The translations under genes and the position numbers were made by a program. From Bifidobacterium aquikefiricola (lineage in GTDB: Bacteria > Actinomycetota > Actinomycetes > Actinomycetales > Bifidobacteriaceae): a stretch of DNA of 24,000 bases. Below, one piece after another: positions 2,712 through 24,000 of the stretch. The notes under the pieces were generated by a model, which was not told the origin of the DNA, made no database searches, and saw only the letters and a program-made list of their open reading frames with translations. Every line of letters starts with the position of its first letter. Position 1 is the first letter of the stretch. Location of the stretch: NCBI RefSeq assembly GCF_041080795.1, contig NZ_CP129674.1, positions 2,268,629 through 2,292,628 of the forward strand, written 5' to 3'.

Positions 2712-3355
2712 TTACTCATGCGCTTTCTGGGACTGTAAATCACCACGAGAATTGGATGTTGAAGTGCTCCCGAGGATGTCGGCAGTCTGAACTGCACCGG
2801 CGAAATGCGGGAGTATCTGGTTGACGCAATACAGCGGCTGTTCCTGAGTGAACGCTGCCACGGCATCCGTGATAACCGATGCATTGTATCCCAGATCATG
2901 TGCAGATCTGATACTCGATTCGACGCAGACATGAAGGGCGAATCCCATGAAATACAGCTCACTGATATGTTGGGACTTAAGGTATTCATCCAGATCAGCC
3001 CCAGTGAATGCGCTGGATCCGGTTTTCCTGATAACCATTTCTCCGTCCGCAGGTGTGAAAGGTGGCGTAAATTCACTTGCCCGGGTTCCGGATTGCCAAG
3101 TTTGCGCTTTCTGAATCGCATATCTCATGCCGAATCGCGCAGGAGCAACTCCTGAGAGCCCTGGGTATCCGGGTTCAAAAAAAACATTCCACAATGTATG
3201 ATATGAAAATTCTGTCCACGCGCATATTCCAAAACCTCTCGCGCGTTCGACAGCGCCGATGGCAGATAATCAGGCTCCAAACGGCCATACAACCGGCCTG
3301 TTTCAGACAGCCATTCATTTTGGAATTCAATCAAGATTACAGCAGGATTTGACAT
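2712..3355 (-). pseudogene. Isochorismatase-family cysteine hydrolase interrupted by a frameshift in a homopolymer
   Basis: The N-terminal part reads MSNPAVILIEFQNEWL...NFHIIHCGMFF (ATG at 3355, GGAGGA RBS upstream). The C-terminal part reads (F)FEPGYPGLSG...GEMVIRKTGSSAFTGADLDEYLKSQHISELYFMGFALHVCVESSIRSAHDLGYN. The two parts lie in different frames and join exactly at the A8 run 3177-3184 (T8 on the coding strand). T9 or T6 would restore a single 214-aa-class ORF. Confidence 0.75.
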
Positions 3356-3829
3356 TCGTCCTCCAAAGAATCGGGCACAGCCCATGCACAAAGCAACGTA
3401 TCAATATTCAACAGGCAGACCCTATACAAACCGGCAGTCTTTCCATAGCCAAATGCATGCATCGTCCTTCGGCAGTCCCTTCTGCATGCATCAGCTAGAC
3501 ACACAGCATCTTCTAGACAGCTCCACAGAAGAATGAAGCCCAGCATTGCGAAACGCCGAGAGAAAGCGACACGCCCGTGTCCGCATTCACAGACAGCTGG
3601 CCAAGCGTTTCGGCATCGCAGCAGAAAAGCATCAGGCCGAACGTCGATTTTCCCATATATCAGGCTAATGAGAACCATTACCGATAGCGTCATTTCATCA
3701 ATCTAGATCCTGTCACAGCAAGCAAATTCATTGTTCTCATTCTGATAATTTGCAGAAAAACTTCGTAAATAAGTTAGTAAATTATACTTGATCGGTAATA
3801 TTGCGAACGTGTTTAAAAAATTATCTAAT

Positions 3830-5719
3830 ATGAATAAATTGGTGCGTGCTTGCGTGGCATTGTGCGTGGCATGCGTTGTTGGGTTAACAGGTGGTGCGAT
3901 ATACAATCCTCTGGCTGTTGCAAGTGAAGCGGATGCTCAGGGTTTTTCCCTGCATTCTGGTGAAGGCAGTGATGCGGGTGGCACTCACGTCGCGATACAA
4001 GCTCCTAGGAATGTGAGGTTTACCAGGATTGATACTGGTTCTGATCATTCATTGGCATTGGGCAGCGACGGCAACACCTACGCATGGGGCGACAATGAAT
4101 GTGGTCAGCTGGGCGACGGAACGACCACGAACCGGTCCACACCGGTACGCGTGAAAACCCCCGAAGGCGTGACATTCACCAACATTGATGGCGGTCTGAG
4201 TTTTTCAGTGGCGTTGGGCAGCGACGGCAACACCTACGCATGGGGCGACAATCAATATGATCAGCTGGGCGACGAGACGACCACGAACCACCTCACACCC
4301 ATACGAGTACACACTCCCGCAGGCGTAACATTCACCAGCATTAATGCCGGTTGGTACCACACCTTGGCGTTGGGCAGCGACGGCAACACCTACGCATGGG
4401 GTCTCAATGCATATGGACAGTTGGGCGATGAGACAACAACTAATCGGTCCACACCGCTACGCGTGCACGCTCCCGCCGGAATAAAATTCACCAGCATCAA
4501 AGACGGCTTGGGCCAGTCCTTGGCATTGGGCAGCGACGGCAACACCTACGCATGGGGCCGCAATCAATATGGTCAGCTGGGCGACGGAACGACCACTAAT
4601 AGATCCACACCGGTTCGAGTGAAAACCCCCGAAGGCGTGAGATTCACCAGCATCGATGGCGGTCTGGGCCATTCTGTGGCGTTGGGCAATGACGGGAACA
4701 CATACGCATGGGGCTTTAATTACCGTGGTCAGCTGGGCGATGACACAACCACGAACCAACTCACACCGGTACGAGTACACACTCCTGCAGGCGTAACATT
4801 CACTAACATTCATGCTGGTATGGGTCATACGCTGGCATTGGGCAATGACGGCACCCTGTACGCATGGGGGTGGAATGGATATGGTCAGCTGGGCGACGGC
4901 ACAACCACCAATCGCTATACACCAGTACGCGTGAATACTCCCAAAGGCGTGACATTCACCAGCATCGATGGCGGATATCGTCATTCGTTAGCGTTGGGTA
5001 GTGACGGCAACACCTACGCATGGGGCAGCAATGAATACGGCCCGTTGGGCGATGAAACAACCACCGATCGCTACACACCAGTACGTGTGAGCACTCCCGC
5101 GACGAAGGTTGTGAAAGTGTTGTTTGATGGTGTCGAGGGCAGTAATCTCATGTTTGATCAGGCATCAGGTCAGTGGCAGATCACCACACCAGCGCATACG
5201 CCTGGCACGGCGAACGTGAAGGTGCAGTGGACAGTAAGTGACGTTGCACAGCCGGACGCCTTGTTGTCATATACGTATATCGGCGTGAAGCATCATGTCT
5301 CCTTTGACGCTCAGAGTGGCTCTCAAGTTGATGCTCAGGATGTCGAGCAGGGCAAGACAGTGAACAAGCCAGCTGATCCTACACGTAAGGGTTACAGGTT
5401 TGTGCAGTGGACTAGCGATAAGGCCGGTAAGAACGCCTTTGATTTCAAGACACCCGTCACCGCAGATATCACCTTGTATGCGCAGTGGGTAAGCGTTGCT
5501 GCTTTCGGATCGGTGAATCCCACGACGAATCCCGGTATTTCAAGAACACCTTCTGCTCCGGCAGCTGGCAGCAGCGCCGTGAAGCCTTCTGGTGACACAG
5601 GCAGGAAGAGCGGCAATGCCTTGGCTTCCACCGGGAGCACGATAAGCGCTGTTGCTACTGCAATGCTGCTGTTCAGTGGTATTGGTGCGGCGCTTGTGTG
5701 GCGTCGTTGTCATGCATAA
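3830..5719 (+). CDS. Cell-wall-anchored surface protein: signal peptide, seven RCC1-type repeats (beta-propeller), Ig-like segment, Listeria-Bacteroides (Flg_new-type) repeat, LAxTG sorting signal
   Basis: Signal peptide MNKLVRACVALCVACVVGLTGGAIYNPLAVA/SE. There are seven 52-aa repeats with the RCC1 signature HSLALGSDGNTYAWGxNxYGQLGDGTTTNRxTPVRV. HHVSFDAQSGSQV...GKTVNKPADPTRKGYRFVQWT...ITLYAQW matches the Flg_new repeat pattern. The C-terminus has LASTG (5621-5635), a hydrophobic stretch and RRCHA. An alternative TTG start lies at 3788. Confidence 0.9.
   Translation: MNKLVRACVALCVACVVGLTGGAIYNPLAVASEADAQGFSLHSGEGSDAGGTHVAIQAPRNVRFTRIDTGSDHSLALGSDGNTYAWGDNECGQLGDGTTTNRSTPVRVKTPEGVTFTNIDGGLSFSVALGSDGNTYAWGDNQYDQLGDETTTNHLTPIRVHTPAGVTFTSINAGWYHTLALGSDGNTYAWGLNAYGQLGDETTTNRSTPLRVHAPAGIKFTSIKDGLGQSLALGSDGNTYAWGRNQYGQLGDGTTTNRSTPVRVKTPEGVRFTSIDGGLGHSVALGNDGNTYAWGFNYRGQLGDDTTTNQLTPVRVHTPAGVTFTNIHAGMGHTLALGNDGTLYAWGWNGYGQLGDGTTTNRYTPVRVNTPKGVTFTSIDGGYRHSLALGSDGNTYAWGSNEYGPLGDETTTDRYTPVRVSTPATKVVKVLFDGVEGSNLMFDQASGQWQITTPAHTPGTANVKVQWTVSDVAQPDALLSYTYIGVKHHVSFDAQSGSQVDAQDVEQGKTVNKPADPTRKGYRFVQWTSDKAGKNAFDFKTPVTADITLYAQWVSVAAFGSVNPTTNPGISRTPSAPAAGSSAVKPSGDTGRKSGNALASTGSTISAVATAMLLFSGIGAALVWRRCHA
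4019..5110 (+). repeat. Seven tandem 156-bp coding repeats (RCC1 blades)
   Basis: The units begin at F78 of the 3788 ORF and each is exactly 52 codons. The 33-mer TTGGGCAGCGACGGCAACACCTACGCATGGGG is identical in repeats 1-4 and diverged in repeats 5-7. Confidence 0.85.
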
Positions 5720-5792
5720 CCAGAATCCAACAATGCAGTATGTAGCGCGCCGTTCTCATATGTGAAATGTAGAAGCGCGTAGATTATCCTCG

Positions 5793-6164
5793 TCATGATG
5801 ACATGGCGGGGATAATTGGTTTTGCTGCGTTGCTCCGGTCAACCAGATCACGAGAATTCTCCACCCCGAGCACCAGCCGCTCATATTGCTCGCCTCTGAG
5901 TTGAATGACAACAGGGCATTCCGGCCTGGCAACATTCCAGAACGTCCTCTCCCCATTCTTGGAGAACACACCTGCCCACTTGCCGGGAACATGAAGACCG
6001 GGTGCACGCAAACCCTTAGTCTCGTCAAGAATGCCTGGATCCTCGGTCGCGCCCACAATATGCTCGATGGGTATCACCAGCTTAGTTTTAAACGACCACA
6101 CTCTATCCAGGCCCTGCGGCTCAATCTGCAGCATCCGCCCGGCAATTGTCACCTTGTTTCCCAT
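5793..6164 (-). CDS. Hypothetical 123-aa protein, possibly a small beta-rich or PH-like fold, co-transcribed with the upstream TetR gene
   Basis: The ORF has sensible codon usage. A GAAGGAAGG RBS is embedded in the 3' end of the TetR gene, and the ATG lies 2 nt after the TetR TAA stop. No diagnostic motif was recognised. Confidence 0.55.
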   Translation of the reverse strand: MGNKVTIAGRMLQIEPQGLDRVWSFKTKLVIPIEHIVGATEDPGILDETKGLRAPGLHVPGKWAGVFSKNGERTFWNVARPECPVVIQLRGEQYERLVLGVENSRDLVDRSNAAKPIIPAMSS

Positions 6165-6166
6165 GG

Positions 6167-6586
6167 TTACCTTCCTTCACCATCGGCGACCACACGAATG
6201 TGCGCACGCCGTAACAGCGTCTTGCCTAGGAGCGAAGCGATGTCAACGATATCGACAGTCCCCTCATCCAATCCGAGGCGAGACACCTTCGCCAAATAAT
6301 CCTCAACCAGCCCGCGAACCTCATGATCGCGACCCGACAGCTCCATCAGCGCCACCAAGACCAGATTGAGCACACCCGAATCTCGCGACTTCGAATTCGT
6401 CGCATCACGCAATGCAGCCACGAACATGCCCCTCTTGCTGCCGAACGCTCCGTACAAACTGCCCCGAAGCAGGCCTGTGGCTCTGACAAGTGCACCAATC
6501 GAAGCGCCCTCATACCCATGTATAAGGAAGACCTGGCGAGCATGAGCAAGGACCTCACCATCATCGAAGCTTCTATTACGACCCAT
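6167..6586 (-). CDS. TetR/AcrR-family transcriptional regulator (short, about 139 aa)
   Basis: MGRNRSFDDGEVLAHARQVFLIHGYEGASIGALVRATGLLRGSLYGAFGSKRGMFVAALRD is a typical TetR N-terminal HTH. The start was chosen at M32 of the track ORF (6586) because the upstream extension lacks protein character. Confidence 0.8.
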   Translation of the reverse strand: MGRNRSFDDGEVLAHARQVFLIHGYEGASIGALVRATGLLRGSLYGAFGSKRGMFVAALRDATNSKSRDSGVLNLVLVALMELSGRDHEVRGLVEDYLAKVSRLGLDEGTVDIVDIASLLGKTLLRRAHIRVVADGEGR

Positions 6587-6716
6587 GCTCAAAACGATAC
6601 TATTAATTGACTGAATGGTCAAGAATAATAAGCGGTCGTCACCTTGCCCTGCACTATAAGGGCTCCCAGCATGGCTCACTGCAGTGCAGAGAATGTAACT
6701 GTGGGCGTGTCTGGCC

Positions 6717-12651: not shown

Positions 12652-12689
12652 CTACCCTTGCATCGCTCATGGGCTGGTATCGTGTGAGG
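12652..12689. repeat. Right copy of the 38-bp imperfect direct repeat flanking the AbiE cassette
   Basis: CTACCCTTGCATCGCTCATGGGCTGGTATCGTGTGAGG. It lies 2059 bp from the left copy in the same orientation, inside the leader of the YjdF-family gene. Confidence 0.8.
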
Positions 12690-12746
12690 TGAAGATAAAA
12701 ACACAGTTCGGTACGGTAGTCCGGACGCGGTTTCCCGTCAGTATCC

Positions 12747-12789
12747 AGCCTCCTCGGCCGTCCAATCTTCTCGAATCATAGAGGAGGTT
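12747..12789 (+). promoter_or_regulatory. Predicted RBS-sequestering hairpin in the leader of the YjdF-family gene
   Basis: AGCCTCCTC (12747-12755) can pair with GAGGAGGTT (12781-12789) over 9 bp, including one G-U pair. The second arm is the GAGGAGG Shine-Dalgarno, 7 nt before the ATG at 12795. The loop is 25 nt. Confidence 0.3.
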
Positions 12790-12794
12790 GTAGT

Positions 12795-13238
12795 ATGCCT
12801 GAAAACGGGCGTAAGTTTTCAAAAGCTCAATCAACAGTATATTTTGACGGCTCGTTCTGGGTCTGTGTGTGCGAGCGCGAGAACGACGGGAAAATTCAGG
12901 TTTGTAGGATAGTGTTTGGCAGTGAACCAAAGGACTATGAGGTTCTTGATTATTTGCAGAAGCATTATTATTCGTTGGAGTTTAGTACTCCGATAAGTGT
13001 TTCCGACAGAAGCAGGAAAAGCTCTCGCAATGTGAATCCTAAGCGTCTGGAAAGAATGGCCGCTCGATCGATGCGACAACGTGGAATCAGCACAAAGGCA
13101 CAGTTGGCGCTTTCTGCTGCAAGGGATGAGCACAAGAAGAACGACAAGATTCAGAACCGTCTGAGAAGAGTCGAAGCGGATAATCATCGACGCATGCTCA
13201 AGATTCAGAAAAGAAAACTCAAGCATCGCGGACACTGA
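12795..13238 (+). CDS. YjdF-family (DUF2992) protein
   Basis: 147 aa. VYFDGSFWVCVCERENDGKIQVCRIVFGSEPKDYEVLDYL matches the DUF2992/YjdF N-terminal pattern as I recall it from B. subtilis YjdF. The C-terminal half is strongly basic (K/R-rich). A strong RBS is present. Confidence 0.7.
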   Translation: MPENGRKFSKAQSTVYFDGSFWVCVCERENDGKIQVCRIVFGSEPKDYEVLDYLQKHYYSLEFSTPISVSDRSRKSSRNVNPKRLERMAARSMRQRGISTKAQLALSAARDEHKKNDKIQNRLRRVEADNHRRMLKIQKRKLKHRGH

Positions 13239-16406: not shown

Positions 16407-17339
16407 TCAGTCCACATTGATGGTGGCGTAGTGTTGGGCCGCTTCAGCCACCCGATGATTGTAGTCAACAGAGGGATTGTAGGCGCTGATAGCACTGATC
16501 CAGTTCTTGGATTGAGTCAGATTTCCTCCGGTCTTGCACAAATACAAGCCTGCCGCGAGCGCAGCGTCGTCAATCTGGTTGATGTCCTGTTTGCCGTCAC
16601 GGTTGCCATCTTGTGCGGCGCTCTTCCATGTTGCAGGAATGAACTGCATCGGCCCTACCGCGCGATCCCAGGTGGTGTCGCCGTCAATCTCGCCACGATC
16701 CGTATCCGGGGTACGGTTGTTTCCGTTGCCATCGAGGGCCACACCGATGATTGATGGAGCGACCGTCCCGTCTGCATGCAGTGTGGCGTTATTGGTGCTG
16801 CCATGTTCGGTTTCTACCTGACCGATGGCAGCGAGGGTGTTCCATCCCAGTCCGCATGAGGGATGGGTGCGAGACACGGCGATTGACGCTCCTGCATAGG
16901 CTTGCAGCGCGCGTTCGGGAATGCCGGACGATTTGGCGATTTTCGTCACCCATTCCTTGTCTGCAAGTTTCGCAATGGGTATGTTCTCTTGCTCACCGCC
17001 GTTGGCAGTCACATTGGCAGTACCGGATGCCGAGGGTGCTGCGCTGGTTGGCGCTGTTGTTGTAGCTTCCGTGTCCGTAGCTAGCGTGGCGCTGCTGCTT
17101 GCATGCCCTGCAGCGCTTGCCTGACTCTCGTCATTTTCTGGTGCATAAGTTGCGGCGAACAATGCTGCAAGAAGTGCGGCAATCCCCAATAATCCGAGCA
17201 CACTCATGGTCGTTGGCCACGCTAGCCGCCGCCAGGGTATGGCAGCAGAAGTGTGGCGCGCGTTGTCCGGAGTGTACTCCGAGGCATTGGTTTCAGGTGT
17301 CGAAGGGAATAATGGAAAAGGATTCTGTGGATCAGTCAT
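16407..17339 (-). CDS. Membrane-anchored lytic transglycosylase (SLT_2/MltB-like domain)
   Basis: About 310 aa from the ATG at 17339. It has an N-terminal TM segment (MSVLGLLGIAALLAALFAATYA) and an Ala/Thr/Ser-rich linker. The catalytic region reads AAIGQVETEHGS...WDRAVGPMQFIPATWK...DGNRDGKQDINQIDDAALAAGLYLC. The upstream 42 codons of the track ORF overlap the permease gene and are rejected. Confidence 0.8.
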   Translation of the reverse strand: MTDPQNPFPLFPSTPETNASEYTPDNARHTSAAIPWRRLAWPTTMSVLGLLGIAALLAALFAATYAPENDESQASAAGHASSSATLATDTEATTTAPTSAAPSASGTANVTANGGEQENIPIAKLADKEWVTKIAKSSGIPERALQAYAGASIAVSRTHPSCGLGWNTLAAIGQVETEHGSTNNATLHADGTVAPSIIGVALDGNGNNRTPDTDRGEIDGDTTWDRAVGPMQFIPATWKSAAQDGNRDGKQDINQIDDAALAAGLYLCKTGGNLTQSKNWISAISAYNPSVDYNHRVAEAAQHYATINVD

Positions 17340-18360
17340 GGTCAGACCTTCTGGAAATACGATGTGAACGATGTGTGGAACGATGCTCCGATGGAATGGA
17401 TTCGGTAGCACTCTGAGGAGCTTGAACACCTTGAGATATCTGAACACCCTGAGATGCCTGAACACTCTGCGATGCCTGAGCCTGTCTGAGTGTCGCGCGT
17501 GACCTATGTCCGTGTGTCACTGCGCGAATGACAACGCCTTGTTGTGGAGAAAACAGCCACGCGCACAGAAAAACTGCCGTCAACACCAGCACGATGGTGC
17601 CGCCTGTCGGAAAATCCCATGACCACGAAACGTACAGGCCGGTCAGTGCCGAACATGCGCCAATCACCGGAGCCACGACCATCATGATGCCCAGACGGTC
17701 AGTCAGCAGGCGTGCGGTTGCCGCCGGTGTCACCAGCAGAGCGAGCACGAGGATATTACCGATGGTTTGCACGCTTATCACGACCGCAAGCGTGACCAGC
17801 ACGTAGAGAGCCAGATCGAGCCAGAATACCGCGAGTCCTTGTGCCCGTGCGGATTCACGATCCAAGGAGACGGTCACCAATTCCTTGTGAAGAAGGAATA
17901 TGACCAGCAACACCACGAGCGAAGTACCCGCCACAATGTACAGATCCGACTCGGGAATTCCTGTTATCGAGCCGAAGAGGAACTGCTGCAAAGACCCTGC
18001 ATATCCGGGCGATTGGGAGATAATGACAATGCCAAGCGCGAAGGCGGCGACGAACAGGATGCCGATGATGGAATCTTCTTTCAATCGTCGGTTCTGCGAA
18101 AACACGGCGACAAGAATCGCCGTAAGCACTCCGGCGACCGTTCCACCGAGCACGAGGTTGCCGGAAATCACAAATGCGACAGCCAAACCGGGGAATACGG
18201 CATGTGCCACGGCATCACCGATGAACGCCATGCCGCGCAGCACAACGTAGCAGCCCACTACCCCGCACACCATGGAAGACATCACCGCAACCGCTAATGC
18301 CTTGGGTAGGAACGCGAGATTTGGGTTGAACAAATCCATAAAGAAATCAACGGGACTCAT
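17332..18360 (-). CDS. Anchored-repeat-type ABC transporter permease (ZnuB/TroD-like) with a hydrophilic C-terminal extension
   Basis: MSPVDFFMDLFNPNLAFLPKALAVAVM...FIGDAVAHAVFPGLAVAF is typical of metal (Zn/Mn/Fe) ABC-3 permeases. The start at 18360 forms an ATGA overlap with the ATPase stop. The last roughly 60 aa are non-membrane, with (QxSQGV)n repeats and a His/Arg-rich tail. Confidence 0.9.
   Translation of the reverse strand: MSPVDFFMDLFNPNLAFLPKALAVAVMSSMVCGVVGCYVVLRGMAFIGDAVAHAVFPGLAVAFVISGNLVLGGTVAGVLTAILVAVFSQNRRLKEDSIIGILFVAAFALGIVIISQSPGYAGSLQQFLFGSITGIPESDLYIVAGTSLVVLLVIFLLHKELVTVSLDRESARAQGLAVFWLDLALYVLVTLAVVISVQTIGNILVLALLVTPAATARLLTDRLGIMMVVAPVIGACSALTGLYVSWSWDFPTGGTIVLVLTAVFLCAWLFSPQQGVVIRAVTHGHRSRATLRQAQASQSVQASQGVQISQGVQAPQSATESIPSEHRSTHRSHRISRRSDHD
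17422..17475. repeat. 18-bp tandem repeat, three good copies plus degenerate flanking copies, inside the permease 3' end
   Basis: TTGAACACCTTGAGATAT / CTGAACACCCTGAGATGC / CTGAACACTCTGCGATGC, followed by the degenerate CTGAGCCTGTCTGAGTGT (17476-17493). On the minus strand this encodes QASQSV-QASQGV-QISQGV-QAPQSA. Confidence 0.75.
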
Positions 18361-19190
18361 GCGACCGCCTTCACCATGCGCAGCAATGCGGAGTCGCGCC
18401 CCACACCGAAGGTCGTCGTCCACGCATCAGGGTTCGATACCAATGCGGATGGGGTTCCGGCTGCGATAATCGTCGAATTCAGCAATGCCAGACGGTCAGC
18501 GCCTCCTATCGCACCAACAAGGTCATGCGTGGTCATCAACACGGCATGGCCTTCATGCGCGATATCGCGAAACAGACCGGCAAGCAGCTCTTGGGTCGGC
18601 ATATCAAGTCCCGTATAAGGTTCATCCAGCAGCAGCACCGAAGGTTGCAGGGCGAGGGCGCGTGCCACCAGCACCCGCTGGCGTTGCCCGCCGGAAAGCT
18701 GACCTACCGGCCTGTCTGCAAGCGCCGTCATGCGCACACGATCAAGGGCATCAGCGACAGCTTCCCAAACGGCCGCATCAGGACGTTTGAACAACCCCAA
18801 TTTTCCACACAGTCCTGTCGCCACCACGTTGGCAACGGAAATCGGAAAATCCCAGGCGAACTCGTGGCGTTGGGGAACATAGCCGATGGCGGCACGCCCA
18901 GGCTTGGCACTTCTCCCATCGACGAGCACCCGCCCGAACGCGGCACGCTGCAAACCGAGAACGGTACGCAACAATGTGGTTTTGCCCGCACCATTCGGTC
19001 CTATCAGCGCGAGCAGCTCACCCCGCTCAACGCTAAGGTTGACAGATTGCAGCACGCATCTGCCACCAAGTTCAACCGTCACATCGTCAAGACGCAGCGC
19101 GGCATGTGCATTGGCATGTGTTTTATTGTGTGCGGCAGGAAGCGATGCGGCCTGCGCTGTGGGGAATGCTGTATCCGTTGCTGCACTCAT
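18357..19190 (-). CDS. Anchored-repeat-type ABC transporter ATP-binding subunit (ZnuC/TroB-like)
   Basis: Walker A GPNGAGKTT, signature LSGGQRQRV, Walker B LLLDEPYTGLD, H-loop TTHD. An ATGA overlap joins it to the upstream gene at 19187-19190. Confidence 0.9.
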   Translation of the reverse strand: MSAATDTAFPTAQAASLPAAHNKTHANAHAALRLDDVTVELGGRCVLQSVNLSVERGELLALIGPNGAGKTTLLRTVLGLQRAAFGRVLVDGRSAKPGRAAIGYVPQRHEFAWDFPISVANVVATGLCGKLGLFKRPDAAVWEAVADALDRVRMTALADRPVGQLSGGQRQRVLVARALALQPSVLLLDEPYTGLDMPTQELLAGLFRDIAHEGHAVLMTTHDLVGAIGGADRLALLNSTIIAAGTPSALVSNPDAWTTTFGVGRDSALLRMVKAVA

Positions 19191-20296
19191 ATGCCACCAC
19201 CAACGCTTTGGTCGCCACCTGTTTCCGCCTCACTCTCGGCTTTGCGCCTTCGATCGTCGAGAATACGGCGTTTGGCCTTGTTTCCGCGCACTATCACCAC
19301 GGTGAAACCTGCAACCAAGGCAATGAATACCACGATGATGGCTCCAATAAGCACGGCAACCAGCGCAGTGTTTGCAGGGGCACTGCCCTCCTGCCCGCTT
19401 TGTCCCGTAGCAGCCGAGCCACCGCTTTTGGTCTTGTCAGCACTGCCGTCAGCGCTCTCGTTGCCGCTAGCACCGCCACTGGCATCTGAGGAACCGGCAT
19501 GGTCGGATTTTGCGGCGCTACTCCCCTGCCACTGTTGGGCGAATGCCTGATCTGCCGTGGTTGCCGTGCCCACTGCGAAGCGAATGTGCTGAGTGTCCGT
19601 CACATGGCTGCCGTCACGCAGCTCAGCTTCGGCGGTAAGTTCAACGAGATACACGCCGGGTTGCGTGAACACCCAGTTCGCGTGCGTATGCGTGTTGACA
19701 TCCACCCAGATGGGCTGGGATTCGCTCTTGCGTGAATCCCACAACACTTGCGGCTCGCCAAAGGAGCCCGACTGCAGATAGGTCGTCATGATGCCCGGCC
19801 CCTGCACCCCCGTCAGCGACAGAGTGATGCCGCGTTCGATGGTGTTCATCACCTCGGGGTCTTGCGTATTCCACCCTATCCACACCACTTCGGGATTCTG
19901 CGTCTGCGGCACCACGTACACGTCACTGCCAGCCGCAGCACCCACAAACGAATAGGCAGGGTCTTCAGGAACGGCGAGTTTCGCCGCGTCGAGCACATGG
20001 AACACCGTTTCGTCGGGATAGCGCCACACGCTGGTGGCATTCGCGTCAGCCTTGGCCACATCATCGTGAATGAGGAAACGCCAAACCCCCTGGTCATATT
20101 TCGGTCCCATATCAATATGCCCGGTGACCAGTTCACGCTGACCGTGGACGATGGCAAGCTCGCCTATCGTCTGGTTCAGATTCGGGTCTTCACCATCCTC
20201 GGCGTATGCCAAAGCCGGTATGCCAAGAGCTGCAAGGCTGGTGAGAGTGGCCAGCAGCGCTGCAATACGACGTCGAAATGGATGCAGGTTCATCAT
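19187..20296 (-). CDS. Membrane-anchored surface protein with one actinobacterial anchored-repeat domain (TIGR03769-type / choice-of-anchor-M-like)
   Basis: Signal peptide MMNLHPFRRRIAALLATLTSLAALGIPALAYA. The domain motifs are GHIDMG, VYVVPQTQ, VWIGWNTQ, GPG and HTHANWVF. A Gly/Ser/Asp-rich linker follows, then a C-terminal TM segment (LVAVLIGAIIVVFIALVAGFTVVIV) and a basic cytoplasmic tail. No LPXTG motif is present. Confidence 0.8.
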   Translation of the reverse strand: MMNLHPFRRRIAALLATLTSLAALGIPALAYAEDGEDPNLNQTIGELAIVHGQRELVTGHIDMGPKYDQGVWRFLIHDDVAKADANATSVWRYPDETVFHVLDAAKLAVPEDPAYSFVGAAAGSDVYVVPQTQNPEVVWIGWNTQDPEVMNTIERGITLSLTGVQGPGIMTTYLQSGSFGEPQVLWDSRKSESQPIWVDVNTHTHANWVFTQPGVYLVELTAEAELRDGSHVTDTQHIRFAVGTATTADQAFAQQWQGSSAAKSDHAGSSDASGGASGNESADGSADKTKSGGSAATGQSGQEGSAPANTALVAVLIGAIIVVFIALVAGFTVVIVRGNKAKRRILDDRRRKAESEAETGGDQSVGGGI

Positions 20297-21984
20297 GAAG
20301 TTTTCCTATCTGTCGAATCGGTGAGGCATTCATTGAGGCTGTCGGCGTTGAATCGCAGCATCTGCTCGTAGCTGTTGACCTCATTGGAGAAGGTGTCGCC
20401 ATATATCGGGCACACGCGAATGCCTTCATCATTGGCAACCTGTTGCAAGGTTGATGATCTGCTGGCAAGGTTCGGTTCAAGAAACACAGCGGGCACTTGC
20501 AGGGAGCGGATGGTTTCGACCAGTTTGCGCCGGTCCGCCAGCGAAGGCTCCGTAGCAGGGTTGGGAGTGACGAATCCGGCAACGGAAAGACCATATGCAT
20601 GGGCAAGATATCCGAAAGCATCATGAGTGGTCACCAGATACCGTCCCTGCTGAGGAATCTTGGCGAGTGCCGCCGACATGTAGTCATCCGTCGCTTCCAA
20701 GGTTTTCAGATACGCTTCGGCATGTGCCACGTATTGAGCGGTATGAGCTGGGTCAGCGCCGATAAGCGTGTCTCGTATGAGCTGCACATAGGCCATGCCG
20801 TTGCGAGCGTTCTGCCACAAATGCGGGTCAATCTCGCCATGTACATGCTTGCCGAGTACGGCTTGCGCGAGCTGATACACATGCTGTCCAGGACGGCCAA
20901 GGAAGGCGTATTGAGATCCTTTGGGAATTTCCGCCAACGCTTTGGCTGGCACATCCACAACGACCTGACTTGCCGGATATGCTTGCTGGGAGTGTTCGCC
21001 TCCGCCACCCGGATCGTAGCGAACTTCCAAGGCTGCCGAGTCAAGGTTCGCGGTCAAATCGGCATGCCCTTTGTCGAGTATCACCGGGTTCTTGATTCCA
21101 GTCTGCTTGGCAGCCTGAGTGGGGTTCACCCCCACGGCGAAGGTGTATGTTGCATGCCCCAAAGCCACGGGTTTGGCGGTATCGCTCACTTTGAGCTTGG
21201 CTTGCAGGTCGATGGTGTACACGCCTGGCTTGGTGAAGGCCCACGATAGATGCGTATGCGCGTCCGCAGGCAGCGACATGGTGTCGTCGCGATACCCCTG
21301 TGCCGCGTCAAAACCGTCGGAGGAGTCAAAATAGCGTTCCGTATTGCCAAAGGAACCCGTCAAATATGCGAATATATCGCCCGGGCCAGTGGCGTTCGTG
21401 GCAGAGAGCAGCACTTCGGAGGTGCGGGTTGCACCGTAGCGTTCCCCGCTGCCATGCGCCCGCAATCCAAGCCACACGGTGTCAAGGTTGACGTTCTCCA
21501 CTAAGGGAATGATCTCGGCAGCGTATTTCACCGCTTCCTCAGCCAGAGACACGTTGATGGCATCTGAACGCAGGTTAGCATCAAGGGTTTTAATCACCGA
21601 CTGTTCTTCCAACATTGCATAATTGGAAAATGCGACATCGGCATAGACGACATTTCGGGCGTCTCGCAATGTTGGCTCATAGGAATGTGGATCGCTGTTA
21701 TCAGGTATGAGGGATACGGCATCTACATAATCACCGCCGACGTGTTCGACCATGTCCCGCAAAATCCCCGTCGTGGTGACCACCCGTAACCGTTCGCTAT
21801 GCGCGGGCAAGGCTGGTCTGGCGGCGCACCCTGATACCAGCAGCACGCCACACAGCACACCCACCGTTGTCATCCACCGTGCGGCATATCGCACAGCAGC
21901 ACAACGCGCAGCACAACGCACGACTGACCGCATCGCACACCGGACGACCGACCGCACGTCAACTGTTATGGCCGTGTTCGCCAT
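20293..21984 (-). CDS. Anchored-repeat ABC transporter substrate-binding lipoprotein: ZnuA/TroA-like cluster A-I SBP with an inserted repeat domain of about 220 aa
   Basis: Lipobox LLVSGC. The SBP metal-ligand motifs are SDPHSYEP, EIDPHLW, VTTHDAFGY and PIYGDTF. An insert between the first two motifs (about 20839-21492) carries VWLGL, GPG, HTHLSWAF and GHAD. The start is uncertain: 21984 is the longest option and overlaps the upstream gene by 19 nt. ATG 21933 and ATG 21873 (MTTVGVLCGVLLVSGC, a typical lipoprotein signal) are alternatives. Confidence 0.85.
   Translation of the reverse strand: MANTAITVDVRSVVRCAMRSVVRCAARCAAVRYAARWMTTVGVLCGVLLVSGCAARPALPAHSERLRVVTTTGILRDMVEHVGGDYVDAVSLIPDNSDPHSYEPTLRDARNVVYADVAFSNYAMLEEQSVIKTLDANLRSDAINVSLAEEAVKYAAEIIPLVENVNLDTVWLGLRAHGSGERYGATRTSEVLLSATNATGPGDIFAYLTGSFGNTERYFDSSDGFDAAQGYRDDTMSLPADAHTHLSWAFTKPGVYTIDLQAKLKVSDTAKPVALGHATYTFAVGVNPTQAAKQTGIKNPVILDKGHADLTANLDSAALEVRYDPGGGGEHSQQAYPASQVVVDVPAKALAEIPKGSQYAFLGRPGQHVYQLAQAVLGKHVHGEIDPHLWQNARNGMAYVQLIRDTLIGADPAHTAQYVAHAEAYLKTLEATDDYMSAALAKIPQQGRYLVTTHDAFGYLAHAYGLSVAGFVTPNPATEPSLADRRKLVETIRSLQVPAVFLEPNLASRSSTLQQVANDEGIRVCPIYGDTFSNEVNSYEQMLRFNADSLNECLTDSTDRKTS
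21896..21955. repeat. Compound tandem repeat at the SBP 5' end / intergenic junction
   Basis: GCAGCACAACGC is perfectly duplicated in tandem (21896-21907 and 21908-21919). ACGACTGACCGC (21920-21931) and ACGACCGACCGC (21944-21955) recur at 24-bp spacing. If translated, the region gives RSVVRCAM-RSVVRCAA-RCAA. Confidence 0.7.
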
Positions 21985-24000
21985 GCCAATGACCCGTTGC
22001 GCTTACCCATCCACCACAGCACGCCCGCACCCGCAGCACCGCTGAGCAGCAGTAGCCCGAGTATCGTCAGCAGCAGTGGCACAGGATTGCCTTCTGTCAG
22101 TGCAGCCAAAGGACCGGCACCTTTTGCCCGAGGACCTTGTGCTGCATCAACGCGCTCGTCGGCCTGCTCGGTGTCATCGGCTTCGCCAGCAAGTGCGGAA
22201 GCCTGATCTGCCGCCTTTAATGCCGCTTCTTCTGCGAGTTTCTTGGCCCTTGCAGTACCGGCATCATCGGCGGTGAACACGAGTCGAGCTTGCGATGCTG
22301 TGTTGCAATCCGTCGTGGAGCTCATGGCCGATGCGGGGTCAACCGCACCCACCACAATCGTGAGGGTTTCAGTATCCGAAGATGTCTGACCGTTAGCAAG
22401 CGTGGCGGTCTGCGTCATCGAAATCCGGTATATGCCTTCCCTGCTGAACGCCCAGTTCGCATGTGCGTGAACGCCAAGAGGAATCCTGTAGCTGCCTGCG
22501 CCGTTGAATACCATCTGCTGCACTCCGCCGAACGCGCCAGCCAAATACACCTTCATTGACCCTGGACCATTCACCGAGTTGATGGTCCACGTAACCGGCC
22601 CGCGAGCGTTACCAGCATTCAGCGATTCCGTATTCCATCCCAGCCAAATAAGATTCGCTTGCTGCGTCTGCGGAATCTGCCACACACGCGAACCTGCCGC
22701 ACCAATCTGCCCATAACCATTCGGCAATGTCACGACACTGGAGGGCTTCAGCCACAGAATCGTCCCCGCTGGCTCACGGTAAACCTTGGTTCCTGATGTG
22801 TCATCACCAATCAACGATTGCAAACTGCCATTGACGATGCGTGACGAGTAATCCACATGCCCAGAAGACAGCACCGTTGCGCCAACCACACACTGGCGTG
22901 CCGCCAACGTTGTGACAGGAGGAGTATTGTCACCAGACGTTAGCTGATCCTTCGGAGCATTCGGCACCGATGGAGGCGTAACGACCTTGACCTCACTCCA
23001 CCCGATCAGGCTGCCGCCCTCGGATCTCACTTCAATGCGGTGCTCTCCCACAGGAGTATCTTTTGGCACTCGGAAACTCGCCACATGCTGAGCATCAACC
23101 GTCTGCTTGCCGAGGTTTGTAGGCGTTGAGTGCAGCCATCCGGTAACATCTTTGCCCGCATATCCTTGCGGCAACTGCACACGAAGTAGCTGGCCGGGAT
23201 AGAATCCCTGCGCGCCATCAAGCACACGCAGACCGCCTCTATTGGCATCCGTCAACTCCTCGGTTGGCGTGGTATCCCCATCCGGTGCAGGCTGTTCATC
23301 CTGTCCGGTGAAGCAGTTGGCCGGGTCGGCTTGCATCACGTCGGCATGACCCACGGCCACGGCCAACACAAACGGGCTGGTAACCCGAGCACCGGAAGCC
23401 AGGGTCGTGGCACGTTCAAACGCCAAGCAATACGAACCCTCAGCACTAAACGCCCACGAACCATGAGCATGCGTGTTCTTAGGAATCGTGAACCTATCAG
23501 CATCAGACACGCCATCACGCGTATTAAACAGCACCTCAGGCTGACCAAATATGCCAAGCTGGTACAGCGCGAACTCGCCCGGACCAGACACGTTTGTCAA
23601 ACGCCAATCCACGCCATTCGTCGCGTTCAAGGTAATCGACTCAGTTGACCAACCCGGCCACAACAACCCGGCCTGCTGGGTCTGCGTGACCTGATAGAAC
23701 TGCGAACCCGCATTACCAAGGAACGACCACTGGCTACCAGACGGCACCTGAGCCTGAGCGCCAGGCAACAACTGCAACACCGTCTTCGTAGGATCACGCC
23801 ATGTCTCAGAACCGCTGGTGGTGTCCTTCACCTGAGTCACCAGACGATTACCATCAAGCAGCGAAGCAATGTCAACATGCCCATCATTCAACACCGTCGC
23901 ACCAGCAGCATTCACCGTCCCGTTAGCAACATTCCACACAGGCTGCGGCACAGGAACACCGGAATCATCGTCACCGCCAGAGCCATCACCCGCATCACCC
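21966..24000 (-). CDS. ABC transporter-associated surface repeat protein (TIGR03773-like): two anchored-repeat domains flanking an Ig-like segment, with a C-terminal membrane anchor; 5' end beyond the right edge
   Basis: The reading frame stays open to the window edge (...GDAGDGSGGDDDSGVPVPQPVWN...). Domain copies lie at about 23349-23903 (GHVDIA, YQVTQTQ, LWPGWST, GPG, HAHGSWAF) and about 22347-22883 (GHVDYS, WQIPQTQ, IWLGWNTE, GPG, HAHANWAF). The tail reads PLAALTEGNPVPLLLTILGLLLLSGAAGAGVLWWMGKRNG, that is, hydrophobic plus basic with no canonical LPXTG. Confidence 0.85.
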   Translation of the reverse strand, partial: GDAGDGSGGDDDSGVPVPQPVWNVANGTVNAAGATVLNDGHVDIASLLDGNRLVTQVKDTTSGSETWRDPTKTVLQLLPGAQAQVPSGSQWSFLGNAGSQFYQVTQTQQAGLLWPGWSTESITLNATNGVDWRLTNVSGPGEFALYQLGIFGQPEVLFNTRDGVSDADRFTIPKNTHAHGSWAFSAEGSYCLAFERATTLASGARVTSPFVLAVAVGHADVMQADPANCFTGQDEQPAPDGDTTPTEELTDANRGGLRVLDGAQGFYPGQLLRVQLPQGYAGKDVTGWLHSTPTNLGKQTVDAQHVASFRVPKDTPVGEHRIEVRSEGGSLIGWSEVKVVTPPSVPNAPKDQLTSGDNTPPVTTLAARQCVVGATVLSSGHVDYSSRIVNGSLQSLIGDDTSGTKVYREPAGTILWLKPSSVVTLPNGYGQIGAAGSRVWQIPQTQQANLIWLGWNTESLNAGNARGPVTWTINSVNGPGSMKVYLAGAFGGVQQMVFNGAGSYRIPLGVHAHANWAFSREGIYRISMTQTATLANGQTSSDTETLTIVVGAVDPASAMSSTTDCNTASQARLVFTADDAGTARAKKLAEEAALKAADQASALAGEADDTEQADERVDAAQGPRAKGAGPLAALTEGNPVPLLLTILGLLLLSGAAGAGVLWWMGKRNGSLAWRTRP

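Follow-up and report, generated by a model that had tools for sequence, protein, structure and literature searches.

A seven-bladed RCC1-type propeller protein with predicted signals for export and wall anchoring, a one-propeller relative of a bee-gut bifidobacterial family

Results

The gene and its surroundings

The window – the whole 24-kb stretch of DNA that was analysed, taken from a genome of ~2.36 Mb – contains a single copy of a gene whose product looks like a rather ordinary surface protein of bacteria, in which a short stalk carries a seven-bladed RCC1-type propeller. The gene itself and the features that lie around it are:

2712–3391, minus strand: frameshifted isochorismatase-family pseudogene, divergent from the RCC1 gene
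3694–3829, plus strand: AT-rich upstream region (28.7% GC), presumed to hold the promoter and the 5′ leader; part of a divergent intergenic gap of 438 bp
3830–5719, plus strand: complete CDS, 629 aa plus stop
5782–5817, plus strand: weak candidate intrinsic terminator hairpin, 63 nt past the stop codon

The open reading frame that encloses the ATG at 3830 runs from 3788 to 5719 on the plus strand and is intact; the 629-aa product is the same in an independent gene call (public assembly). An antisense frame (4457–4984, minus strand) was set aside as unsupported, long frames of this kind being typical of repetitive sequence.

An AT-rich stretch of about 130 bp ahead of the gene had been noted in a sequence-only reading of this DNA, and it proves to be the GC minimum of the window: the lowest-GC 130-bp stretch of all 24 kb begins at 3711, against a window GC of 54.6%. 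A promoter scan upstream of the gene returned no match to a two-hexamer sigma-70 promoter; TATACT (3783–3788) and TAATAT (3796–3801) are candidate -10-like hexamers, and no Shine-Dalgarno motif is evident ahead of the ATG. As to the terminator, four terminator-like hairpins were found in the region versus 2.6 expected from shuffles.

The same reading had placed two pseudogenes beside the gene. One of them is clear – a 160-aa frame corresponds to positions 58–174 of the isochorismatase profile and an 88-aa frame, in another frame, to positions 2–49 – while the second could not be identified. A short TetR-like frame (6167–6679) may or may not be truncated. AbiE lies in the neighbourhood, with an IS element and restriction-modification genes just upstream. 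For two neighbouring genes, gene order in the nearest relatives is conserved just across the operon or the gene pair itself, and the stretch seen around those relatives holds no RCC1 gene. The best named matches of two neighbours disagree, one pointing to Bifidobacteriaceae MAGs at ~84%, the other to Micrococcales at ~62%. The idea of an acquired or fast-evolving locus is in keeping with an accessory, non-syntenic position among AbiE, IS and restriction-modification genes and next to one pseudogene. It sits poorly with base composition: the GC content of the gene (54.9%) equals that of the window, and thus gives no compositional sign of recent transfer.

A complete propeller of near-uniform blades

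4013–5092, plus strand: seven-bladed RCC1-like beta-propeller (aa 62–421; seven 52-aa repeats)

The motif YAWG recurs at aa 84, 136, 188, 240, 292, 344 and 396, a period of exactly 52 aa with zero indels. Membership of the RCC1-like group (PF00415 / PF13540 / PF25390) was taken to mean several repeats of 50–60 aa over the curated Pfam thresholds, and this is what the seven-repeat region shows: seven stretches match RCC1 (E 2.9e-95; 313 bits, cut-off 21.7), seven match RCC1_2 (E 3.7e-45), and WD40_RLD is matched at E 3.8e-119 (399 bits, cut-off 150). Together with the Flg_new match described below, these scores are far beyond chance. In the AlphaFold2 model of the 629-aa protein (mean pLDDT 83) the propeller comprises 28 strands, seven times four, at a pLDDT above 94, and the predicted fold is closed and seven-bladed. 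The best Foldseek match of the model is plant UVR8 (TM 0.93, rmsd 1.8 Å, 31–32% identity), followed by RCC1, HERC2 and RPGR. Profiles, period and model thus agree with the view that seven regular 52-aa RCC1 blades form a complete propeller.

Blade-to-blade amino acid identity averages 69%, which exceeds the 60% cut-off applied to highly repetitive ('recently amplified') beta-propellers (Pereira and Lupas 2022, PMC9218822), among which the RCC1/BLIP-II group is the third largest and mostly bacterial (PMC9218822). The DNA follows a 156-nt period at 73–83% identity. Unlike in recently amplified propellers, however, the DNA copies of the blades are just 69–83% identical, so that amplification of the blades was not very recent.

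The differences between blades are not spread evenly. Columns 17, 18, 34 and 36 of the repeat are among the eight most variable in the seven window blades, and across 218 blades from 60 homologues they rank first, second, third and fifth in entropy. These columns align with UVR8 W233/W285/W337 (plus Arg) and W94/W198/W250/W302, residues placed on the face through which UVR8 dimerises (PMC7455749). We infer that blade variation clusters at four positions that map onto one face of the propeller; the face so ringed is likely to be a ligand-binding surface.

An Ig-like domain that appears to be split by the propeller

3944–4006, plus strand: N-terminal strands of the predicted split IPT/TIG domain (aa 39–59, FSLHSGEGSDAGGTHVAIQAP)
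5096–5284, plus strand: C-terminal five strands of the predicted split IPT/TIG (Ig-like) domain (aa 423–485)
5288–5494, plus strand: Flg_new / InlB B-repeat-like domain (aa 487–555)

Counting strands with DSSP, the AlphaFold2 model has two confident strands before the propeller (45–47 and 53–57, pLDDT 83–87) and five after it. The motif [FW]xLxPxxGPxxGG stands ahead of propeller units across homologues (38 by pattern search), and the bracketing motifs recur on both sides of such units. Moreover, a profile of the joined N- and C-terminal segments matches the IPT domain of plexin-A1 from end to end (positions 1–86; E 9e-7). Strand count, motif recurrence and profile match together suggest that a single IPT/TIG domain makes up the Ig-like part and is interrupted by the propeller in an early loop. 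The Pfam definition of this domain (PF01833) calls for some 85 aa and seven strands over the Pfam threshold. The Ig segment by itself scores 17.2 bits versus a cut-off of 20.9 and covers profile positions 28–84 only; the window's own joined segments likewise stay below threshold with a match that begins at position 28, and joined segments from 6 of 20 sequences are matched. The Ig-like segment of the sequence-only reading would then be just the C-terminal two-thirds of a domain, the first strands of which precede the propeller.

The Flg_new repeat recognised in that reading is borne out by the Pfam search as a single domain (aa 489–552, E 9.4e-19). It is modelled at a pLDDT of about 87, and the InlB B-repeat 2y5p is a PDB sequence match for the region (E 1.9e-4). 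The protein is not an internalin, a family marked by an LRR domain and an inter-repeat region: NCBIfam NF033188 and NF033189 reach about 30 bits versus cut-offs of 1,050 and 1,600, by way of the B-repeat region alone, and there is no LRR.

Signals for export and wall sorting

3830–3922, plus strand: signal-peptide-like N-terminus (aa 1–31)
5495–5620, plus strand: disordered linker rich in Ser, Ala, Gly, Pro and Thr (aa 556–597), presumed wall-spanning
5621–5716, plus strand: tripartite cell-wall sorting signal (LASTG 5621–5635; hydrophobic stretch 5636–5701; RRCHA 5702–5716)

By rule-based reading the N-terminus fits the n-, h- and c-regions of a signal peptide with an AXA site: K3 and R6 precede a 19-aa hydrophobic core (mean Kyte-Doolittle hydropathy 1.6–2.1), and the segment is unstructured in the model (pLDDT about 30). 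Cleavage is likely between AVA and SE, with ADA and QG as the alternative; homologues have AHA sites in the matching place. Going by the RCC1 repeats themselves, one might think of an RCC1-like effector, intracellular or injected, or of a GEF, as in Legionella. This we regard as extremely improbable given the predicted signal peptide at one end and the wall-sorting signal at the other, the extracellular type of the IPT and Flg_new domains, and a neighbourhood in which secretion-system genes were not found. A Ran-GEF function was rejected in view of the predicted extracellular signals.

The linker is modelled at a pLDDT below 35. It had been described as a Pro/Ser-rich stalk, a label that does not hold given a Pro content of about 11% among its several abundant residues. 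The sorting signal is seen as it had been claimed: LASTG (aa 598–602), 22 mostly hydrophobic residues (aa 603–624) and RRCHA at the extreme C-terminus. A cell-wall sorting signal was taken to consist of an LPXTG pentapeptide (LAXTG in class E), then hydrophobic residues and, last, positive charges in the C-terminal tail, and the protein has all three. A sortase substrate should in addition carry a signal peptide for Sec, as predicted here, and have in its genome a cognate sortase that would cut it and join it to peptidoglycan. Judged by its letters, LASTG fits both the LAXTG motif of class E sortases (PMC5148588) and the motif [L/I/V][S/A/P]XTG of the class E sortase of B. bifidum (PMC8603203).

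The protein could nonetheless be exported and left unprocessed, with the C-terminal helix as a membrane tether and LASTG as a chance match. In favour of such tethering, neither the 24-kb window nor the 6 kb that precede it yielded a sortase gene; moreover the window's two other predicted surface proteins, both of the anchored-repeat type, end in a hydrophobic helix and a basic tail and lack an LPXTG/LAXTG motif, so that there is no second local example of the motif. We consider tethering quite unlikely: LASTG is placed exactly as a sorting signal requires, immediately before the 22-aa stretch and basic tail, it conforms to the class E consensus, and homologues carry LPxAG, LPLTG, LAGTG or LARTG in the equivalent place.

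Homologues with surface signals are numerous. There are at least 7,951 matches at E<=1e-10, and among the best 120 of these at least 7,951 proteins 35 – the window protein included – have sortase-type tripartite tails, LAGTG being one of the motifs and LARTG that of a Cellulomonas homologue; other tails among the best 120 resemble T9SS C-terminal sorting signals or PEP-CTERM. Bacteria have extracellular propellers of the RCC1 type in abundance. The premise that bacterial RCC1 proteins are mostly intracellular or uncharacterised, from which the locus had drawn its novelty, fails on these numbers, and also on two papers (2012 and 2015) that are taken up below.

Discussion

Every in-silico test run backs the architecture first proposed for this protein: secreted, wall-anchored, with a full seven-blade RCC1-like head. 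Our preferred reading, which we hold to be probable, is that of a sortase-anchored RCC1-propeller protein exported by Sec, joined to the wall by a class E-type sortase and acting as an adhesin or surface receptor. Export would proceed via the predicted signal peptide, which is of the Sec type. The sortase, a housekeeping enzyme of class E type, would then cut between LAST and G and link the protein covalently to actinobacterial peptidoglycan. From the wall outwards the mature protein would comprise the ~42-aa disordered linker, the Flg_new (InlB B-repeat-like) domain as a spacer, and the IPT/TIG domain with its inserted propeller. The propeller is presumed to be the ligand-binding, and so the working, head: an unusually uniform blade scaffold in which most differences would fall at four positions per blade. 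Because this head bears a variable one-face ring as its likely binding surface, the most likely role is that of an adhesin or a receptor at the surface, with a ligand that comes from the host, the diet or other microbes.

A further step is to ask what the arrangement might be for. We suggest, tentatively and with more doubt than conviction, that the propeller-in-IPT cassette is a modular, quickly diversifying binder scaffold, in which the frame is constant and a four-position ring per blade varies on one face. Such cassettes may amount to something like a variable-receptor repertoire at the cell surface of Actinobacteria from insect guts and soil. If this is true, the single-copy, single-unit gene of the window is a minimal natural version and the simplest handle on the ligand class of the family.

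The nearest folds are eukaryotic. UVR8 (PDB 4dnw, 6dd7 and others), RCC1, HERC2 and RPGR share the seven-bladed RCC1-like fold; unlike the window protein, these are cytoplasmic or nuclear, and the Ran or chromatin context of the eukaryotic RCC1-type proteins does not exist in bacteria. Nor is the window protein a UV-B photoreceptor of the UVR8 type, which is marked by three GWRHT motifs and the WGW Trp residues at the dimer face. The Trp triad (GWRHT x3) is missing: the residues at the triad positions are L, M and Y, and the lone Trp in the column, in the GWYHT of blade 3, falls outside the triad blades.

BLIP-II of Streptomyces exfoliatus offers a bacterial parallel. It too is a secreted-type seven-bladed propeller, of the RCC1/BLIP-II group, and a tight protein binder (PMC9218822); it differs from the window protein in being soluble rather than wall-anchored, and in having neither IPT nor Flg_new. 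By analogy with BLIP-II, the window propeller might bind and block a soluble protein, and so be an inhibitor of an enzyme of a competitor or host rather than an adhesin. BLIP-II is, after all, the one secreted bacterial member of its group with a characterised function (PMC9218822; cited in PMC3447821), and a variable ring on one face suits protein-protein recognition. On the other hand, BLIP-II is found neither among the PDB sequence matches at E<=0.001 nor among the best 50 fold matches, and proteins that a stalk anchors covalently to the wall are typically adhesins or receptors rather than inhibitors that diffuse. An inhibitor is, on balance, rather unlikely.

Another counterpart is the RCC1-like domain-containing protein P0062 of Cellulomonas sp. 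P4 (703 aa), which is 45% identical to the window protein. It has the single propeller, the IPT-like brackets and the long low-complexity stalk, and its tail comprises LARTG, a hydrophobic segment and RRRRARR. It differs in having eight Pfam RCC1 repeats, and in place of Flg_new it has a further Ig-like stretch, followed by a stalk rich in Pro.

The design is also known from bee-gut Bifidobacteriaceae. Bottacini 2012 (PMC3447821) and Ellegaard 2015 (PMC4449606) described wall-anchored proteins with RCC1, Flg_new (the Listeria-Bacteroides repeat) and LPxTG in B. actinocoloniiforme and the Bifidobacterium asteroides group. Their genes are multi-copy, mostly in tandem clusters, with 7–24 per genome; each protein has 2–4 RCC1 domains with Flg_new upstream of each, and no function was assigned to the family (PMC3447821, PMC4449606). 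Present-day examples of the RCC1 and Flg_new combination come from Bombiscardovia, B. xylocopae and B. apousia. The window protein shares with this family an RCC1 domain of about seven repeats, Flg_new, an N-terminal signal peptide (predicted in the window protein) and a C-terminal sortase-type anchoring signal. The bracketing segments, predicted to be IPT, are also common to both; identity to relatives is 40–50% over 70–93% of the window protein, and 30–43% within the Ig plus Flg_new module.

There are differences too. The window protein has one propeller rather than 2–4 and is 629 aa long against about 1,000–1,100 aa; Flg_new follows the sole propeller instead of standing ahead of each one. 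It has a disordered linker of 42 aa ahead of the anchor, whereas in the relatives the Ig segment leads straight into the signal, and its motif is LASTG where theirs is LPxAG or LPLTG. Lastly, the gene is solitary within the 24-kb window while those of the family are clustered.

Such differences might arise by decay, if a gene with two propellers, like those of the bee-gut family, had been truncated after Flg_new and had left the window gene as a non-functional half. Relatives do mostly have two propeller units in 1,000–1,100 aa, the window protein corresponds to their first unit plus Flg_new, and a pseudogene adjoins. Yet the frame is intact, with seven blades in register and both the predicted signal peptide and the sorting signal complete, and P0062 shows that a one-propeller, stalked, LARTG-anchored form exists. 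A MAFFT alignment hinted that the linker might be a remnant of a second propeller; this was rejected, since Smith-Waterman scores of the linker against 17 second-unit starts equal those of shuffled linkers (z = -0.1, 300 shuffles). Decay of this kind is very improbable.

Judged on its domain sequence, then, the window protein is a one-propeller LAxTG variant, solitary within the 24 kb and without close orthologue, within the known bee-gut Bifidobacteriaceae family of RCC1 plus Flg_new proteins. If the adhesin or receptor reading is right, it is a further case of a large wall-anchored RCC1 propeller family known genomically since 2012, to whose published descriptions the predicted split IPT/propeller topology and one-face variable ring are small additions. 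With one propeller, one spacer and one anchor it is also shorter and simpler than any other member seen here, and, given its uniform blades and clearly localised variable positions, it should be a handy construct for solving the structure and screening for ligands.

Architecture of the RCC1 protein

The RCC1 protein is most likely a surface protein that a class E sortase would anchor to the wall and that would bind a ligand through one face of its uniform RCC1-like propeller; it belongs to a known, functionally uncharacterised family. The wall-anchored, ligand-binding architecture proposed from sequence alone is supported and slightly refined.

An open reading frame scan of the window placed the gene as follows:

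3788..5719, + strand, open reading frame of the RCC1 gene

The ATG at 3830 – the start chosen by the sequence-only reading – yields a 629-aa product, and the identical protein was called independently in a public draft assembly. YAWG recurs at residues 84, 136, 188, 240, 292, 344 and 396, giving seven repeats with a period of exactly 52 residues and zero indels, matched in the DNA by a period of 156 nt (73-83% identity). Pfam RCC1 and RCC1_2 each recognise seven stretches (E 2.9e-95 and 3.7e-45), WD40_RLD spans the whole RCC1-like domain (E 3.8e-119), and Flg_new, the Listeria-Bacteroides repeat, occurs as a single copy at residues 489-552 (E 9.4e-19). Given these E-values and the exact period, the seven regular 52-aa blades and Flg_new domain reported earlier are real and far beyond chance. 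NCBIfam internalin models matched over the B-repeat only, with scores far under their cut-offs. An antisense open reading frame within the repeats (4457-4984, - strand, 175 aa) is most likely no gene but a by-product of the repetitive sequence.

An AlphaFold2 model, built from an input alignment of 18 sequences, has a mean pLDDT of 83. The propeller (about residues 64-419) exceeds 94 and comprises 28 strands, that is, seven blades of four; pLDDT is 84-90 in the segment that follows and about 87 in the Flg_new domain. Both ends of the protein (residues 1-32 and 560-629) fall below 35, as expected of signal peptide, flexible linker and membrane anchor. The best Foldseek match in the PDB, plant UVR8 (target-normalised TM 0.93, 31-32% identity, rmsd 1.8 A over about 362 columns), agrees with the predicted complete seven-blade propeller. 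RCC1, HERC1/2, RPGR and RCC2 follow; a PDB sequence search returned the same order, and in it the Flg_new part also matched the InlB B-repeat (2y5p).

The predicted signal peptide and sorting signal are both visible in the translation: at the N-terminus MNKLVR leads into a hydrophobic core of 19 residues and then AVA|SE, and at the C-terminus stand LASTG (598-602), 22 mainly hydrophobic residues and RRCHA. LASTG fits both the LAXTG consensus of actinobacterial class E sortases (PMC5148588) and [L/I/V][S/A/P]XTG, the motif proposed for the Bifidobacterium bifidum housekeeping sortase, also of class E (PMC8603203). Since the window holds no sortase gene, we infer rather than observe that the protein is processed by a sortase. 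The stalk described as Pro/Ser-rich exists as a linker of about 42 residues before the anchor, but its composition is Ser/Ala/Gly/Pro/Thr-rich. A decayed second propeller unit was tested as the origin of this linker and rejected.

A domain probably split by the propeller

The Ig-like segment noted earlier is present, but probably as one part of an IPT/TIG domain. Two further confident strands precede the propeller in the model (45-47 and 53-57) and five follow it (within 425-484), making seven, as in an Ig-like sandwich. Alone, the post-propeller piece matches the Pfam TIG profile (84 positions) under threshold, and over no more than 28-84. A pattern search found [FW]xLxPxxGPxxGG...P before, and the same five-strand segment after, 38 homologue propeller units. 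When 20 pairs of N and C segments flanking propeller units were joined, the resulting profile matched an IPT domain of plexin-A1 continuously over positions 1-86 (whole-sequence E 9.3e-7). Strand count, recurring brackets and profile match together support a propeller inserted in an early loop of the IPT domain.

A candidate binding face

Mean identity among the seven blades is 69% in protein and 74% in DNA, the former above the 60% cut-off that defines highly repetitive propellers, among which RCC1/BLIP-II is the third-largest group and mostly bacterial (PMC9218822). Eight blade columns (positions 1-52 within each repeat) carry at least four different residues, including columns 17, 18, 34 and 36; in a set of 218 unique blades of 52 residues, drawn from 60 homologues, these four jointly take the first, second, third and fifth ranks in entropy. 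In a HMMER alignment columns 17-18 correspond to W-R of the UVR8 GWRHT motifs (W233, W285, W337) and column 34 to the second tryptophan in the WGW motifs (W94, W198, W250, W302). These seven tryptophans all lie on the UVR8 dimer-interface face (PMC7455749). The counterpart of the invariant YAWG tryptophan is the buried distal ring. The alignment suggests that the variable residues form a ring on one face of the propeller, a natural candidate binding surface. A UVR8-like photoreceptor is excluded, because Trp at column 17 is kept in a single blade (GWYHT).

Genomic surroundings

The AT-rich stretch of about 130 bp said to precede the gene is confirmed: the 136 bp before the ATG have 28.7% GC, versus 54.6% for the window, and contain its lowest-GC 130 bp. 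Neither a two-hexamer promoter nor an evident Shine-Dalgarno motif was found upstream. Features bearing on the setting are:

L001 1-3926 (L001 being a public-assembly sequence with the same region), about 2.2-6.2 kb upstream of position 1 of the window, N6-adenine methyltransferase (Eco57I/MmeI-like) and IS3-type transposase (rve)
2712-3391, - strand, frameshifted isochorismatase-family gene (Pfam), upstream of the RCC1 gene and divergent
within 5793-6679, - strand, short TetR-like open reading frame, HTH at aa 44-89 of a 170-aa frame, called as 139 aa
10716-12544, - strand, AbiEii (306 aa) / AbiEi (294 aa), toxin-antitoxin or abortive-infection pair (annotation)

Two neighbouring pseudogenes had been proposed, of which just one was verified, the isochorismatase: a 160-aa open reading frame covers Pfam positions 58-174, and an overlapping one of 88 aa, read in another frame, positions 2-49. 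The short TetR-like gene, directly followed by a 123-aa frame without family match, may be truncated.

The wider neighbourhood – MerR, TetR and HxlR regulators, MFS pumps and the AbiEi/AbiEii pair – is accessory. Just past the window's left edge come an IS3-type transposase and restriction-modification genes, and L001 1-3926, where a further gene resembles the specificity-subunit family Methylase_S no more than faintly, marks a mobile or defence-rich flank. For two neighbouring genes, the contigs of the closest relatives conserve the immediate operon alone and show no RCC1 gene in the stretch seen. Such accessory, non-conserved surroundings favour the suggestion of an acquired or fast-evolving locus, but the coding region, at 54.9% GC, gives no compositional sign of recent import.

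Elsewhere in the window, an azaaromatic (yjdF) riboswitch aptamer (12685-12781, + strand; 67.7 bits against a gathering score of 45, E 9.6e-12) immediately precedes a 147-aa DUF2992/YjdF-family frame (12795-13238, + strand), the classical arrangement. A complete anchored repeat-type metal ABC transporter locus (17332-23951, - strand) encodes a TIGR03773 surface protein (660 aa), a TIGR03772 substrate-binding protein (562 aa), a second choice-of-anchor M protein (368 aa), an ATPase and an ABC-3 permease; an SLT_2-domain gene (16407-17465) comes after it. Its two surface proteins each have a hydrophobic helix and basic tail at the C-terminus, and neither has an LPXTG/LAXTG motif.

Relationship to known wall proteins

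A bacterial surface RCC1 propeller had seemed surprising, a view that does not survive comparison: the search returned at least 7,951 matches at E<=1e-10, a tripartite sortase-type tail occurs in 35 of the 120 best (query included), and the family was published in 2012 and 2015. Other homologues carry T9SS- or PEP-CTERM-like tails, dockerins and many extracellular domains; extracellular RCC1 propellers are thus widespread in bacteria. B. asteroides PRL2011 has 19 extracellular RCC1 + PF09479 genes, with no function assigned (Bottacini et al. 2012, PMC3447821). Genes of this family number 7-24 copies per genome, in tandem clusters and diversified, with about seven repeats per domain, 2-4 domains per protein, Flg_new ahead of each domain and an LPxTG anchor (Ellegaard et al. 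2015, PMC4449606). The literature searched yielded no functional study.

Among the matches listed, the closest relatives with a name have two propellers and about 1,000-1,100 aa (40-50% identity across 70-93% of the query); they belong to Bifidobacterium actinocoloniiforme, B. asteroides, B. xylocopae, B. apousia and Bombiscardovia. The present gene is the sole copy within the window, and its product the sole member of its 90% identity cluster. The protein is equivalent to the first unit and Flg_new of its longer relatives. It differs from the bee-gut relatives (the wall proteins of the B. asteroides group) in having one unit with Flg_new after it, the linker before the anchor, and an LAxTG signal where theirs is LPx[A/T]G (LPKAG, LPRAG, LPAAG, LPTAG or LPLTG). 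One JGI protein among the homologues has an LAGTG tail, and a Cellulomonas protein is likewise one-propeller, stalked and LARTG-anchored, with the same IPT brackets.
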